Below, in pieces: positions 16,757 through 49,707 of a stretch of DNA of 64,000 nt (positions are counted from its first letter, which is position 1; each line of letters begins with the position of its first letter). Under the pieces are notes generated by a model that ran no database searches, was not told the DNA's origin, and worked only from the letters and a program-made list of their open reading frames with translations. Both the position numbers and the translations under genes were made by a program. The stretch comes from a virus: IMG/VR virus record IMGVR_UViG_3300006040_000001, positions 36,695 to 100,694 of that record, one strand, 5' to 3'.

Positions 16757-16814
16757 TAATTCGGTAGTAATTACTACAATGGTTTACGACCACTAACTTT
16801 AGCCGAGTACCAGT

Positions 16815-21756: not shown

Positions 21757-23331
21757 ATGCCACAGGTAATATTAGAAATACCTAACATTGAAGAGAACAT
21801 AGCTCGACCAGTCGTACACCAAGTTATCCGGGAGCTAGCTACGCGCTTAGGCATGCCCGTAGAGACCCGTATACGTCAATTAGGCAGTGGTAAAGCGTTA
21901 CCGGTAGTAGGCAGTACCATGGACGACAAACACGCCGTAAATCGCCTCCCTGGAGATCAATACATCGAGATCAAACCGGATGAGACGTATGACGAGAACT
22001 ATGCGATGTCTGTAGCAGTTACCTACCCTGAACATCTCGCTGTGTTTAATGAACCGAAGCTCGGTATATTGATGCGACCTGTGTATCAGCGTATTAACGT
22101 AAGTGTAGATGTCAAATGCGTAGCGACGGATAAAACCACAGCAGATAACTGGGTGTCTACCATTAAGCGGCGTTTCAGCCAACGGGTCGTAGAGAACAGA
22201 CATTCCCTAAATTACACCTACCCTATACCCGTTCAATACATGGCCATCCTCATGGAGCTACATCGGTTACGTGAAGCCAATCACGGGTATGGCGAGTCTA
22301 TAGGTCAGTGGCTAGCTAATCACTACACGATCTTAGATACAGCGGTTACTGACCAAGCTGGACATAACCCATTACTGGTTATTAAAGAAGCCCAACTCGA
22401 TGTATTAGGCTGGTTTGATTTTACCGATAGCCCGCCTAAGGTAGAGCGTGAAACAGACTCAGGTGCGTGGAGTATATCGTTTGGTTATACGTTTGGTTAC
22501 GATCGTGTAGAATCCGTTATGTTACGTTACCCGCTAATGGTGCACAACCAAATGCTAGATAACCGGTACTATGATGACATTCCGCTAGATCTCTTAACTA
22601 ATTACATGCAGCAACGTAATGTGTCAGCAGCAGCCATGTACGATGCTACTTATCGTGATACGCCCATCCGTAGTATATTCGCAAACCCCGGCATCTCTAT
22701 TCCGCTGTTCGATGACTGGCTACCGAGTTATAAACACGCCGGTTATTTTACGTTGTTGCGTATTATGCTACAGGTAGATCCTACTAGCCCTAATGCGCTA
22801 CTATCACTCGGCCTGTTAGGTGACTGGTCTATAGATCCGGCGGCGTTGGCTTATATGTCCAGTAATCCGTTAGCTATCACTAGACCTTACGAATCTGTGT
22901 TTAATATACAGCTCCACCGTGGTACGGATTATTTAGCCAGTGATAAGTTTATAGTATCTAATACGCTGGATCTACATTACGCTGAGTCTTTAGATGAGCG
23001 GTGTTGCTATCACCTTACGCTCAGTATGCTAGCTAATGTACGTCAACTTAGCTACACGGCTATACTAGCTTTATGCGAGCACGGTCAGTTTACAATAGAT
23101 TATTTAACTGCTACTGTACCCGAGCTAGTAAGTAGTGGTAGTCGCCAGGTCATATTACCTGATGGTACTATACGCTACACGGATTTACCTACGCTGTTAC
23201 CCGATGGGACTATCATGCCACGGGACTTACAACGCACGATCGATAAAATATCTATTCGCCCCAGTAGTAATATTAATGATTACTCATGGCGTCTAGTAAA
23301 TGAATTCATTGTATCAGCCCATCGGAGCTAA
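21757..23331 (+). CDS. Virion structural protein, phiKZ gp98-like
   Basis: AGGAGG RBS; RPVV, YPLMVHNQ and GISIPLFDDWLP motifs; synteny. Confidence 0.55.
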   Translation: MPQVILEIPNIEENIARPVVHQVIRELATRLGMPVETRIRQLGSGKALPVVGSTMDDKHAVNRLPGDQYIEIKPDETYDENYAMSVAVTYPEHLAVFNEPKLGILMRPVYQRINVSVDVKCVATDKTTADNWVSTIKRRFSQRVVENRHSLNYTYPIPVQYMAILMELHRLREANHGYGESIGQWLANHYTILDTAVTDQAGHNPLLVIKEAQLDVLGWFDFTDSPPKVERETDSGAWSISFGYTFGYDRVESVMLRYPLMVHNQMLDNRYYDDIPLDLLTNYMQQRNVSAAAMYDATYRDTPIRSIFANPGISIPLFDDWLPSYKHAGYFTLLRIMLQVDPTSPNALLSLGLLGDWSIDPAALAYMSSNPLAITRPYESVFNIQLHRGTDYLASDKFIVSNTLDLHYAESLDERCCYHLTLSMLANVRQLSYTAILALCEHGQFTIDYLTATVPELVSSGSRQVILPDGTIRYTDLPTLLPDGTIMPRDLQRTIDKISIRPSSNINDYSWRLVNEFIVSAHRS

Positions 23332-26668: not shown

Positions 26669-26965
26669 GTGACTGAACCATTAGATCACATCACCGTAAC
26701 AGTCGAGGCTACGGATTTAACGACTCAATGGCGTATCGCTCTAAACGGCGATACCGTAGGCTACCGTTACCAACTACGATTGATACTTACATCCGGTAAG
26801 TTAAAGTATATGGCAGTAGCTGTAGATACCGATACTAACCTAGCTGACCTAACCCCTCATGCATTAGTAGAAATATTAACAGCACTTACTGCCATAATGC
26901 AGCACCAACTACAGTCAACCAGCTTTTTTATTTTAGGTATAGAACCACACGGAGTTAAGAAATGA
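26669..26965 (+). CDS. Hypothetical protein
   Basis: GTG start just after the upstream stop; ATGA coupling to tmk. Confidence 0.4.
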   Translation: MTEPLDHITVTVEATDLTTQWRIALNGDTVGYRYQLRLILTSGKLKYMAVAVDTDTNLADLTPHALVEILTALTAIMQHQLQSTSFFILGIEPHGVKK

Positions 26966-27606
26966 TTCATAAGAGCGGATATTTTATTACGGTAGAAGGC
27001 GTTGACGGCTCGGGTAAAACCGGTGTAGTCGTACCGGCTCTCTGTGAGTTTTTAAACCAGCATCTTATTAAACCCGTAGTAACACGCGAACCCGGTGGAA
27101 CGCCGTTCGCAGAGGCTATACGTACTTTGTTTAAAAGCGATGTATGTAATGATGTAGATCACACAGCGCTTGCGTTATTAGTCAGTGCCGCTAGACGCGA
27201 CCATGTTACACGTGTAATCATGCCGGCCTTAGCTAATGGATCTGTAGTAGTTAGTGACCGCTACATAGCGACCACCGTAATGTATCAGTATAACGCTAAA
27301 GACCTAAGCCGTATTATCGAAACAGGATGTGCTGGGTTGTTGCCAGACTTAGTAATCCTACTAGATATTCCTTACGATGTATACTGCGCTAGACTAGCGG
27401 AACGCGTGGCTCTAGATGCGTCTGAGGAAGCCCACAACCACTTAGACATTATGGACGCCGAGTTGTTTAATCGACGTAGGGCTGCGCTAATACAGTTTCA
27501 TAACTTGTATCCTGTGCACAGCGTATTAGTGGATGCTACGGCTAGTAAAGAGGACGTGGTTAAAATCGTTAACCAACATGTACAGCGTGCTATGGGATTC
27601 ACTTAA
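26962..27606 (+). CDS. tmk: Thymidylate kinase
   Basis: P-loop EGVDGSGKT, TREPGGT, SDRY and PDLVILLD motifs. Confidence 0.92.
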   Translation: MIHKSGYFITVEGVDGSGKTGVVVPALCEFLNQHLIKPVVTREPGGTPFAEAIRTLFKSDVCNDVDHTALALLVSAARRDHVTRVIMPALANGSVVVSDRYIATTVMYQYNAKDLSRIIETGCAGLLPDLVILLDIPYDVYCARLAERVALDASEEAHNHLDIMDAELFNRRRAALIQFHNLYPVHSVLVDATASKEDVVKIVNQHVQRAMGFT

Positions 27607-27608
27607 TA

Positions 27609-27640
27609 CTAGGGGCTACCAAGCCCCTAGACCTTATGCC
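27609..27640 (+). terminator. Hairpin followed by TATGCC
   Basis: CTAGGGGCT-ACCA-AGCCCCTAG, then ACCTTATGCC. Confidence 0.6.
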
Positions 27641-27724: not shown

Positions 27725-27988
27725 ATGTCTAAACGTATTAAGACCTACAAACACACTACCGCTCTAAACGCCGATACCTCACCTTCCACTGGTAGCGTTA
27801 CAGCCTATTGCGGTAAATCTCCGTGGCCTAAGTACTTTAAAGAGTATATGTTCTTAGAGGTATCAGACTGTCACTCCAAGGTACGCCTACATACGTCCCA
27901 GTTAGACACCAAACAGGACTTCATCAAGAAGATGCGTAAACTACACAAAGCCATAGGTCAGTTTATCGAGCACCTTGAATCCAATTAA
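27725..27988 (+). CDS. Small phage hypothetical protein
   Basis: 87 aa from ATG 27725; FLEVSDCHSKVRLH...FIEHLE resembles small conserved phage proteins. Confidence 0.55.
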   Translation: MSKRIKTYKHTTALNADTSPSTGSVTAYCGKSPWPKYFKEYMFLEVSDCHSKVRLHTSQLDTKQDFIKKMRKLHKAIGQFIEHLESN

Positions 27989-28071
27989 TCTCAGATACAT
28001 ATTACCTAAGTGAGAGAAGAACTAAGCCTATCTTTACTCACTTATCTTTAACTAGGCTTTGGAGCTACACC
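27980..28071 (+). promoter_or_regulatory. Early promoter plus pseudoknotted 5' leader, copy 1
   Basis: CATATTAC at 27998-28005. 27980-28028 is identical to 49308-49356. Stem 28007-28044; loop AAGCCTA pairs with TAGGCTT at 28053-28059; GGAG SD at 28061. Confidence 0.75.
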
Positions 28072-28704
28072 ATGTTTGCACAATACATTCGTAACACAGT
28101 ACGCAGCACATTGACCACTACACGCTCGGTGGTGTTGGATAGCGACTGTAACCCAATCTGCGCAGAGATTGTAGGTAACTTGAAATGCACTCGCCAGCTA
28201 GCCACTAACGGCGACTTGGTCGTCAAACGTACATACTCGGCTGAAGGCGTAACCACGCTGTTCTTCCGTGTGGAGTGGGCAGAACTAGTGCCTACCACTG
28301 AAGGCACTACTCAGCTGAAAGATGCTATCGAGATGCATCCTGCCTTAGCAGCATTCATGGATCTCAAAGGTCCGGATCTGTTACCAGAGCGCTTCGTCAA
28401 GGCAAACTCGATCGCTGATTATGTAGCCGCCACCAGCCGCCGTAGTGAGCGCGACGCACTGATCCGCAGTGATTTGAACGTTGCGGTACGCAGCAGTATC
28501 CGCGATCTGGCGCATATTGCGTTAGAGTCAGCTGATGCGCTGGTAGCAGCAGTGGAGGGCGAGTTGATTAAAGGTCACCTCCCAGTGGGTTCGATCAACT
28601 CACCTTACGAAGCCGTAGGTGCTGAAGCAGCACGTCGAATGATCGGAGCGGGTGTGCGGTTCGCACGCGGTCTAACCACCGTAGCGCGGATGCACATCAA
28701 GTAA
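28072..28704 (+). CDS. Hypothetical early protein
   Basis: GGAG RBS, 210 aa, with its own promoter and terminator. Confidence 0.7.
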   Translation: MFAQYIRNTVRSTLTTTRSVVLDSDCNPICAEIVGNLKCTRQLATNGDLVVKRTYSAEGVTTLFFRVEWAELVPTTEGTTQLKDAIEMHPALAAFMDLKGPDLLPERFVKANSIADYVAATSRRSERDALIRSDLNVAVRSSIRDLAHIALESADALVAAVEGELIKGHLPVGSINSPYEAVGAEAARRMIGAGVRFARGLTTVARMHIK

Positions 28705-28705
28705 G

Positions 28706-28756
28706 GGCATAATATCCAGAGCGCCCTAGGGCGCTCTGGATACACTCTTTTTTTTT
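28706..28756. terminator. Bidirectional terminator: perfect 30-bp palindrome, T9 tract on +, TATGCC on -
   Basis: TATCCAGAGCGCCCT|AGGGCGCTCTGGATA at 28713-28742, between convergent genes. Confidence 0.75.
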
Positions 28757-28762
28757 GGTTTA

Positions 28763-30070
28763 TTATGGCCTACGTAGCGCTATACTTACCAAACTTACAG
28801 ACTGGCCACCGTCAGCATTACGCACCGCCGTAGGTGCGTTTGCCGTAGATTCAAAATGGTATTGCCCTGGCGCGTCAATACAGTTTAAATCCGTACCCGC
28901 CGGTAGTGTATCACCCACAGGTAAAAAAGGCGCGTCATCCATCATCACCATGCAGTGTGTATTACCCCGTATTCTACGATACTCTACCAGAGCGGCTTCT
29001 ACCGTAGCTGATGGGTCTTCGTCATTAGGATCCAAACCAATATAGATACCGTGTTGTGTCTCCGTAGGTGACTGTATAACCATCACGTTTAGCTCATCCG
29101 ACGTAGAACGTAACTCCTTACACCAGGCGGTCGCTTCGGTTAAATCGTCAGCATATACTACCGGTGCCGTAACGATGCTATCTGCAATAACCGCTAAATT
29201 AGCCATGTCGTTGCTTAAGTGACGCGTCTTAAGATCAGCTAACTGATACGCTACGTCTAATGCCACACAGAACCGTGATGCGTGCTCTAACCCTACGTTG
29301 TATTCCTTACGCAATACGCGGTTAGCGCCGCGTACTTTAGGGTCTATAACAAAGTTGCTGTAGGTTATAACTCCGTCGGCTGCTATGTCAACATTTAAAC
29401 CACACCGCGTACAATGCATAGATCGGTTGCTATGCTCAGTAGCCGGTGATACCGCACCTAAGTTAACACATTGGAAATCGTTGTCCAGTACAGGCTTAAT
29501 CAGGCTACCATCCGCTTCATGTGTTTCCGTACCATCTGCATCAGTATACCTTACCGGCACTAATAAACCACGACCTACACTGGCCGTAACGTATGGATTA
29601 GGTGCTGCATTAGCCTTCTCTAAGATAGCTTGCTTTAGCTCTAGTGCCACTGCCGGATTATTCCGAGCATAAAGTGGCGGGCCTATCTGTACTGCCCCGT
29701 CTACGATGTATTCACGTTGGATAAATGCATCAGGGTCTAACACTATCGAATCGATAGTAAGTAGTGTTTTAGTAGCCTCACCGTGATCCATCCCCCGGCC
29801 TAATAACGGCTCATCCATAATAAGGTCGTGGTGACCGGCACTGTGACTATCAGGGGCAAAAACAGACGGTGTGATCGCTGCTAACTCACCCCATGCAGCT
29901 ACATCATCAGGTGATAAACCTTTGGGCTCATCGATCAATCCCGGCACTACATTAATAGTACGCGGTCGATCACCATCACAGGCATCAACACCCATCCAAT
30001 CTTTAGCGCCGCATTTAGTACAGCGATCATCATCCCAGTCATGTCCTGGGGTAGGTTTATGTGGTTGCAT
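28763..30070 (-). CDS. Mosaic hypothetical protein with two CxxC knuckles
   Basis: HDW...CTKCG and MHCTRCG; 435 aa. Confidence 0.55.
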   Translation of the reverse strand: MQPHKPTPGHDWDDDRCTKCGAKDWMGVDACDGDRPRTINVVPGLIDEPKGLSPDDVAAWGELAAITPSVFAPDSHSAGHHDLIMDEPLLGRGMDHGEATKTLLTIDSIVLDPDAFIQREYIVDGAVQIGPPLYARNNPAVALELKQAILEKANAAPNPYVTASVGRGLLVPVRYTDADGTETHEADGSLIKPVLDNDFQCVNLGAVSPATEHSNRSMHCTRCGLNVDIAADGVITYSNFVIDPKVRGANRVLRKEYNVGLEHASRFCVALDVAYQLADLKTRHLSNDMANLAVIADSIVTAPVVYADDLTEATAWCKELRSTSDELNVMVIQSPTETQHGIYIGLDPNDEDPSATVEAALVEYRRIRGNTHCMVMMDDAPFLPVGDTLPAGTDLNCIDAPGQYHFESTANAPTAVRNADGGQSVSLVSIALRRP

Positions 30071-49304: not shown

Positions 49305-49307
49305 GAC

Positions 49308-49398
49308 TCCAATTAATCTCAGATACATATTACCTAAGTGAGAGAAGAACTAAGCCCATCTTCCCTCACCTCACTTTAACTGGGCTGGAGTTACAATC
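49308..49398 (+). promoter_or_regulatory. Early promoter plus pseudoknotted 5' leader, copy 2
   Basis: CATATTAC at 49326-49333; loop AGCCCA pairs with TGGGCT at 49381-49386; GGAG SD at 49387. Confidence 0.75.
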
Positions 49399-49668
49399 AT
49401 GTCAAATTCAATCATTGTTATGGTCTATCAAGATATTAGCGTATTAGAAGAAGCGTTAAAGCAGTTTAAAGTAGTAACCACGCGCAGCGGCTATACATGG
49501 CTCACTGTGCCAGTGGGTGAACGCACACGCGCTGAGGTTGAGCAAATTGCTGCTAAGCATTGTTTGCCTACTAGCAGTCATCAAGCTGCGTTCGTGCTTA
49601 ACGGCAAAGAAGAGCCATGGACGTTTACAACGCCTACGGCTGCTATCTTAGAGCTAGCTCAGGCATAA
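49399..49668 (+). CDS. Small hypothetical early protein
   Basis: GGAG RBS, 89 aa. Confidence 0.65.
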   Translation: MSNSIIVMVYQDISVLEEALKQFKVVTTRSGYTWLTVPVGERTRAEVEQIAAKHCLPTSSHQAAFVLNGKEEPWTFTTPTAAILELAQA

Positions 49669-49707
49669 TGGCATAGTACTCCACTCCCGTTAGGGAGTGG
49701 GGTACTA
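49662..49707. terminator. Hairpin between convergent genes with tandem TATGCC on the minus strand
   Basis: TAGTACTCCACTCCC-GTTA-GGGAGTGGGGTACTA at 49674-49707; GGCATA at 49662 and 49670. Confidence 0.65.

Follow-up and report, generated by a model that had tools for sequence, protein, structure and literature searches.

The window analysed here, a 64,000 nt stretch of viral DNA, corresponds to bases 36695-100694 of a 100,694-bp IMG/VR virus record. Two + strand ORFs within it, of 210 aa (28072-28704) and 89 aa (49399-49668), are directly preceded by the two copies of a repeat that spans 82 nt (27977-28058 and 49305-49386) and displays 90 % identity. An earlier, sequence-only reading had described a duplicated leader at these sites, and the duplication is real, with 27980-28028 identical to 49308-49356; the positions it had assigned to a first stem, a second stem and a GGAG motif are likewise all correct. 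Both units (cassettes 1 and 2) are monocistronic, and each is closed by a strong palindromic terminator hairpin (28713-28742 and 49676-49706, respectively) that abuts a convergent operon. On the minus strand at approximately 28713-28790 (L001 2234-2294) there are sub-threshold Rfam matches to the DnaX frameshift element (23.6 bits) and to sraL (26.8 bits); these fall on the A-run and palindromic terminator following the 210-aa gene, and most likely reflect a plain terminator. The gene upstream of cassette 1 probably begins at the ATG at 27725 (87 aa; 27725-27988) rather than at 27533, and its stop codon falls inside the conserved promoter block of copy 1. A hairpin followed by TATGCC is also found at 27610-27640, behind the stop codon of the ORF at 26962-27606.

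The record is metagenomic, derives from an uncultured phage and is estimated to be 36 % complete, with approximately 64 % of the phage genome therefore absent from it. Amongst its genes are those for chimallin (phrog_4795) and RNAP beta-like proteins, and its 907-aa virion protein matches phiKZ-like jumbo phages only, at 31–38 % identity, with Xanthomonas phages LucasX and RTH11 as the best matches. Taken together, these features identify the source as an uncultured chimallivirus without close sequenced relatives, and the virion protein matches and chimallin gene agree with the initial assignment to a jumbo phage, here of the phiKZ-like, nucleus-forming kind.

When copy 1 was used to search the whole record, a check that had been proposed from the sequence, two additional copies of greater divergence came to light, both lying before the start of the window. 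Copy 3 occupies record bases 22743-22815 (locus L003), and copy 4 lies at 29809-29854 onward (locus L004). With a covariance model built on just the leader, these four copies are recovered from the 100.7 kb at 56–68 bits, the next best match scoring 9.9 bits, and no diverged fifth copy was found with this model in the same sequence. Across 50,697 phage records, neither megablast nor blastn returned an orthologous leader; only the promoter was shared. Pattern scans of IMG/VR and JGI metagenomes similarly detected nothing past the promoter, one IMG/VR pattern giving random matches only, and in a more distant relative, a 194,866-bp contig, the promoter motif is absent. The evidence base for the leader is thus four sequences, all paralogues of one incomplete metagenomic genome. 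No known RNA family fits it: Rfam 15 gives no match at gathering score in the window, and none on the four leaders at E ≤ 10. A literature search found no account of pseudoknot leaders in jumbo phages.

Copies 3 and 4 precede ORFs of 178 and 74 aa. The downstream genes of the two window copies had been described as unrelated, which BLASTP of their proteins bears out, and this extends to all four, as the cargo proteins are mutually unrelated by BLASTP and a family of related cargo genes can be rejected. Searches of Pfam and PHROG with the four proteins, including those of 210 and 89 aa, assign no family, save for one marginal PHROG match of the 178-aa protein, and tblastn of three of them, amongst which is the 210-aa protein, yields no convincing homologues in phages. 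The latter is alone with itself among 5.8 billion protein clusters and returns nothing from the ESM Atlas; it is also encoded on a 107-kb contig. Cassettes 3 and 4 contain two genes each and lie just before a strand switch. What recurs, therefore, is a four-copy unit in which an early promoter and a structured leader of ~60 nt stand before unrelated orphan genes. Given orphan cargo with terminators behind it, the four units are early expression cassettes resembling the PeSLs of T4-type phages. Immediately upstream of cassette 4, a perfect 12-bp hairpin (L004 1464-1492; record ~29772-29800) has the appearance of a terminator for the preceding gene; in cassettes 1–3 the stretch from the preceding stop codon to the promoter contains no such hairpin. 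In copy 3, a three-codon mini-ORF (AUG UUA UUA UGA; L003 1581-1592) overlaps the start of the 178-aa cargo via AUGA, possibly by coincidence.

The promoter block occupies 27985-28011 in copy 1 and 49313-49339 in copy 2, both on the + strand. It is identical in copies 1–3, with its CATATTAC core (27998-28005 in copy 1) placed 6 nt before the end of the block, whilst the core of copy 4 reads TATATTAC. Every copy has a G after the 6 nt that follow its core. This matches the AR9 early consensus, TATATTAT-(6N)-G(+1) (PMC5312081), and early transcription of phiKZ and phiR1-37 likewise starts 6 nt past the consensus (PMC5312081; reviewed in PMC7598289). By this 6N rule, the predicted +1 falls at G28012 in copy 1, G49340 in copy 2, G1531 of L003 and G1532 of L004, and we infer by analogy that transcription begins at the G of GAG, so that each RNA would start with this trinucleotide. 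When the whole record was scanned for TAYATTAY-(6N)-G/A within 150 nt upstream of ORFs, 18 sites were recovered, all on the + strand, and they include one before chimallin and one before an RNAP beta-like gene. The phiKZ chimallin, PHIKZ054, is itself driven by an early promoter (PMC8244752). Assignment to the virion-RNAP early class is consequently well supported at the level of motif, in agreement with the early-promoter call made at the outset. SPN3US-like jumbo phages (224–245 kb) and Aeromonas phage LAh10 carry the motif as well, in the extended version CAGATA-N-ATATTAC-CTARGT-GA. A sigma-70-like promoter was sought in the leader regions of both window copies; neither contains such a site, and this candidate was rejected. 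Across the whole record approximately 13 further early-type promoters (TAYATTAY-6N-G/A) can be recognized, all on the + strand, with examples at window positions 16763, 19314, 37451 and 42972 and at record bases 188, 2385, 11359 and 16210 (L151); behind several of these a hairpin begins exactly at +1.

From the predicted +1, the four leaders each build a hairpin, S1, composed of a GAG/CUC helix, an internal loop and an inner helix of 4–5 bp, with 7–9 bp in total and a loop of 9–12 nt. In copy 1 it spans 28012-28039, with arms at 28012-28020 and 28031-28039 and a 10-nt loop at 28021-28030, and in copy 2 49340-49367, with arms at 49340-49348 and 49359-49367. The S1 helix is 87 % paired overall, and its outer GAG/CUC pairs are invariant in all four copies, although the hairpin is weak in copies 3 and 4. 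As first drawn for copy 1, this stem joined 28010-28020 to 28031-28041, with G28016.U28035 becoming G-C in copy 2; the G.U pair fits an RNA of the + strand. The suggestion that the stem lies near the 5′ end of the transcript stands in that S1 starts exactly at the predicted +1, but the (TAA)GT extension at its base would lie outside the RNA if transcription begins, as predicted, at the G 6 nt after the TATTAC core. At the base of the stem GAG/CUC alone is conserved, and pairing upstream of it varies, with 5, 2, 1 and 1 extra bp in copies 1–4, respectively.

A hairpin at +1 is common among the early leaders of this phage, of SPN3US-like phages and of LAh10. Of 21 control early leaders with a 5′ hairpin, 16 begin it at +1 and all 21 do so within +1 to +4, which lends support to the predicted TSS. 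The loops of S1, at 9–12 nt, are larger than those of most control leaders, at 4–7 nt. SPN3US-like early leaders (L140-L150, at approximately position 1501) display a fixed order of promoter, G(+1)A, hairpin of 5–8 bp, CTTTTAA-like U-run and a conserved CGACTATCAAGGAG-like ribosome-site context, an architecture of which we know of no prior description. The LAh10 leader (L153 1501-1570; MK838116.1 ~194797-194866) is approximately 83 % identical to copy 1 through stem 1 and is without the second helix described below; it contains an 8-bp perfect complement between CCTAAGTG, most of which precedes the predicted +1, and the SD-overlapping CACTTAGG.

The second helix, S2, joins the 3′ part of the S1 loop to the 6–7 nt just 5′ of the SD, with 7, 6, 6 and 6 bp in copies 1–4. 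In copy 1 the arm within the loop (28024-28030) pairs with 28053-28059, and in copy 2 49353-49358 pairs with 49381-49386. Both the pairing and the U-A to C-G double change that distinguishes these two copies are as originally proposed, and so is the close approach to the ribosome-binding site: GGAG follows S2 after 1 nt in copy 1 (28061-28064, with the ATG at 28072-28074) and directly in copy 2 (49387-49390). From the end of S2 to the AUG there are 12–13 nt in all four copies.

Since the original proposal drew on copies 1 and 2, the pairing is tested independently by copies 3 and 4. Each of the latter retains S2 through a different compensatory change, which takes the repeat of this pairing beyond chance. 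When the four copies are aligned over the stretch between +1 and the SD, 24 of 24 S2 cells are paired, without a single broken pair. Compensatory double changes occur at three of the six S2 pairs, all by transitions: C-G to U-A in copy 1, G-C to A-U in copy 3 and C-G to U-A in copy 4. By a rough estimate (~1/18 per copy), three matched double changes would arise through independent substitution with a probability of ~1 × 10−3 to 1 × 10−4. The covariation score of the whole structure is 0.333, compared to 0.177 ± 0.048 for shuffled alignments, none of 500 of which reach this value, and slid controls score no higher than 0.119. RNAalifold predicts S2 unprompted, and a loop-to-downstream helix at least as long as that observed is infrequent in shuffled sequences (p = 0.006, 0.021, 0.048 and 0.023 for copies 1–4, respectively). 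A loop-to-pre-SD helix of at least 6 bp is absent from all 21 control early leaders that possess a 5′ hairpin, such that this pairing can be rejected as a general property of related early leaders. S1 is hence a general trait of early leaders in this phage group, and S2 alone is special to the four-copy family. The compensating mutations indicate that the fold of this leader is under selection.

Whether both helices could exist in one molecule can be judged from the intervening lengths. L1 is 3, 4, 3 and 5 nt in copies 1–4 and crosses the 6–7 bp of S2; L3 is 13 nt in every copy and crosses the 7–9 bp of S1; the junction between S1 and S2 is 0 nt in copies 1–3 and 1 nt in copy 4. Assessed by general pseudoknot rules, these loop lengths would allow the helices to coexist in a classical H-type pseudoknot. 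With covarying pairing between loop and downstream strand at the SD and a compatible geometry, the H-type reading advanced from the window copies is supported; S1 and S2 are predicted to fold simultaneously, and the ~60-nt leader RNA is probably knotted. The L3 linker (28040-28052 in copy 1, 49368-49380 in copy 2) ends in CTTTAAC (28046-28052 and 49374-49380, respectively), a motif that recurs in copies 1–3 and in the chimallin leader (record 2385-2435), where it lies behind the +1 hairpin. CTTTTAA-like runs are also found behind the hairpins of SPN3US-like leaders.

By estimate, the pseudoknot and the best nested fold have comparable energies. A crude Dirks–Pierce-style calculation gives −9.8, −13.2, −5.8 and −4.5 kcal/mol for the pseudoknots of copies 1–4, compared to nested minimum free energies (MFEs) of −7.9, −11.8, −7.8 and −7.0 kcal/mol, and for copies 3 and 4 the nested fold comes out as the more stable of the two. 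The nested folds of single copies are no more stable than those of shuffled sequences (z-scores of −0.2 to +0.9). In all four copies, the nested MFE and the RNAalifold consensus contain S2 lengthened by 2 bp, in which a CU (or UC) of the loop pairs with the first GG of the SD; a CU-to-UC swap in copy 3 retains the pairing. Accessibility of the SD in the nested ensemble is 0.38–0.46, only mildly below the control-leader median of ~0.5, which does not support strong masking of the SD.

The reading we favour, at a probability of roughly one half, is that the leader is a constitutive, cis-acting module for protection of the message and presentation of the ribosome site, a function that we infer from its form and position. 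The RNA would start at the G of GAG and fold at once into the 5′-terminal S1, the enlarged loop of which would then pair with the 6–7 nt 5′ of the SD to create a compact H-type pseudoknot ending 12–13 nt before the AUG. Its base-paired 5′ end may shield the message from 5′-end-dependent decay. That 5′-terminal stem-loops stabilize mRNA is established for the E. coli ompA leader; both RNase E and RppH require that the 5′ end be single-stranded. The knot would also tie up the pyrimidine-rich leader, leaving both the SD and the start codon unpaired, with a set spacing between them and a helix, and S2 could possibly stack on the SD:anti-SD duplex. Other early genes of the phage, including chimallin, lack S2, and thus the knot is not required for early expression as such.

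That restriction to a few genes also bears on a different proposal, namely that a phage or host RNA-binding protein binds the knot beside the SD and co-regulates, for example by shutting off, a subset of early genes. Pseudoknot operators near ribosome-binding sites are familiar from T4 gene 32, rpsO/S15 of E. coli and the alpha operon/S4, and the presence of one leader on four unrelated genes, when different leaders precede other early genes of this phage, would suit such an operator, as would the position of the structure against the SD and the preservation of its shape more than its sequence. However, the analysis yielded no candidate for the binding protein, conservation of the single-stranded loops is just partial, and Pfam and PHROG reveal no recognizable RNA- or DNA-binding autoregulator amongst the cargo; an operator is accordingly regarded as unlikely, though not implausible. 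It is highly doubtful that the knotted leader serves instead as a recognition signal for a subset of virion-RNAP transcripts, tagging them for export out of the phage nucleus or early-infection vesicle, for loading onto ribosomes in preference to others, or for shielding by a phage factor. The 2-bp extension of S2 in the nested folds raises the further prospect that S1 and S2 alternate, with extended S2 masking the ribosome site through its two CU:GG pairs and S1, or the pseudoknot, representing an open state, in the manner of a switch or folding timer. Conservation of the extension in all four nested folds, including through the swap in copy 3, is in keeping with this, but at 2 bp it leaves the SD barely less accessible than in the control leaders and no trigger is evident, making a switch of this kind rather improbable.

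It could also be argued that there is no function at the RNA level, the copies being PeSL-like promoter cassettes that are alike through duplication or gene conversion, and their complementarity inherited by chance. The 49-nt identical tract of copies 1 and 2 does suggest recent duplication or conversion, and the cassettes precede orphans at transcription-unit junctions, as do the PeSLs of T4-type phages. Nevertheless, the flanking linker has diverged freely whilst the S2 arms have not, and three independent compensatory double changes without a single disruptive one, at the chance estimated above, render this explanation quite improbable. Very unlikely is a role as an attenuator or terminator, or as the source of a short non-coding RNA derived from the 5′UTR. 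Such RNAs are abundant in phiKZ, where they arise via premature termination (PMC10914365), and a U-rich CUUUAA does lie behind S1, with a U-run directly after the hairpin in copy 4 and in SPN3US-like leaders; S1 is, however, AU-rich and weak, six nt separate it from the U-run in copies 1–3, and the terminator-associated TATGCC motif is absent here. A search of both window leaders for an intrinsic terminator, with a GC-rich stem and U-tract, found no such site, and this candidate was rejected. The ligand switch listed amongst the possibilities of the sequence-only reading fares worst and is considered extremely unlikely. Small pseudoknot riboswitches such as preQ1-I do combine a hairpin, an A/U-rich tail and loop–tail pairing next to the SD, a layout that the leader recalls. 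Against this, there is no Rfam match on the leader even at E ≤ 10, the four unrelated orphan cargoes carry no metabolic signature, and the residues of a putative ligand pocket differ between copies.

Almost nothing is known of how the first genes of nucleus-forming jumbo phages are controlled post-transcriptionally. Set against this background, the leader is a concrete, short (~60 nt) and covariation-backed element on a defined early promoter, reused on four orphan genes, and it lends itself to reporter tests of mRNA stability, translation and protein binding. Together with the general +1 hairpin of SPN3US-like and Aeromonas jumbo phages, the four-copy leader suggests that structured leaders serve these phages as modules from which their early messages are assembled. 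If so, such modules would be useful for studies of infection take-over, and as portable expression parts.

With regard to known systems, the promoter shares with the virion-RNAP early promoters of AR9 and phiKZ an AT-rich TATATTAY core ~10 bp upstream of a G start, with 6 nt in between, and its occurrence upstream of chimallin parallels that at PHIKZ054. It differs from them in having an added CAGATA upstream element and a CCTARGT discriminator, both common to SPN3US-like phages and LAh10. In starting at the 5′ end or a few nt from it, the hairpin is akin to 5′-terminal stem-loops of the E. coli ompA type, although here the loop is enlarged and contributes to a second helix, and the stabilizing effect is putative.

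As an H-type structure in the 5′ leader of a phage early mRNA, the complete fold resembles the gene 32 pseudoknot of T2 and T4 and the compact CPK-1 class. CPK-1 pseudoknots have an S2 of 6–7 bp, an L1 of 1–2 nt and 0 nt between their stems (PMC3835772). The leader agrees with these in the length of S2 and in stems that abut (0 nt in copies 1–3, 1 nt in copy 4) and can stack, but its L1 of 3–5 nt falls outside the CPK-1 definition. Whereas the gene 32 knot lies far upstream, with a long unstructured A/U tract leading to the ribosome-binding site, the knot here stops 0–1 nt short of the SD, and its cargo is four unrelated orphans rather than an autoregulating ssDNA-binding protein.

The closest counterpart in overall arrangement is provided by the PeSLs of the T4-type phages RB49 and phi1, in which an early promoter, a stem-loop and an SD precede orphan genes in plastic regions (PMC2839356). 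Again, a repeated intergenic promoter, stem-loop and SD stand right before orphan genes, here in four copies. The PeSL promoter has a sigma-70 consensus, in contrast to the phage virion-RNAP (AR9/phiKZ) type of the present units, and the PeSL stem-loop is a strong, GC-rich terminator, for which the leader has no comparable site; the structure described here instead lies downstream of +1, inside the mRNA, and contains a covarying long-range pairing. PeSL cassettes recombine, forming mini-circles, and the present units too place similar copies before unrelated cargo and are therefore possible recombination substrates.
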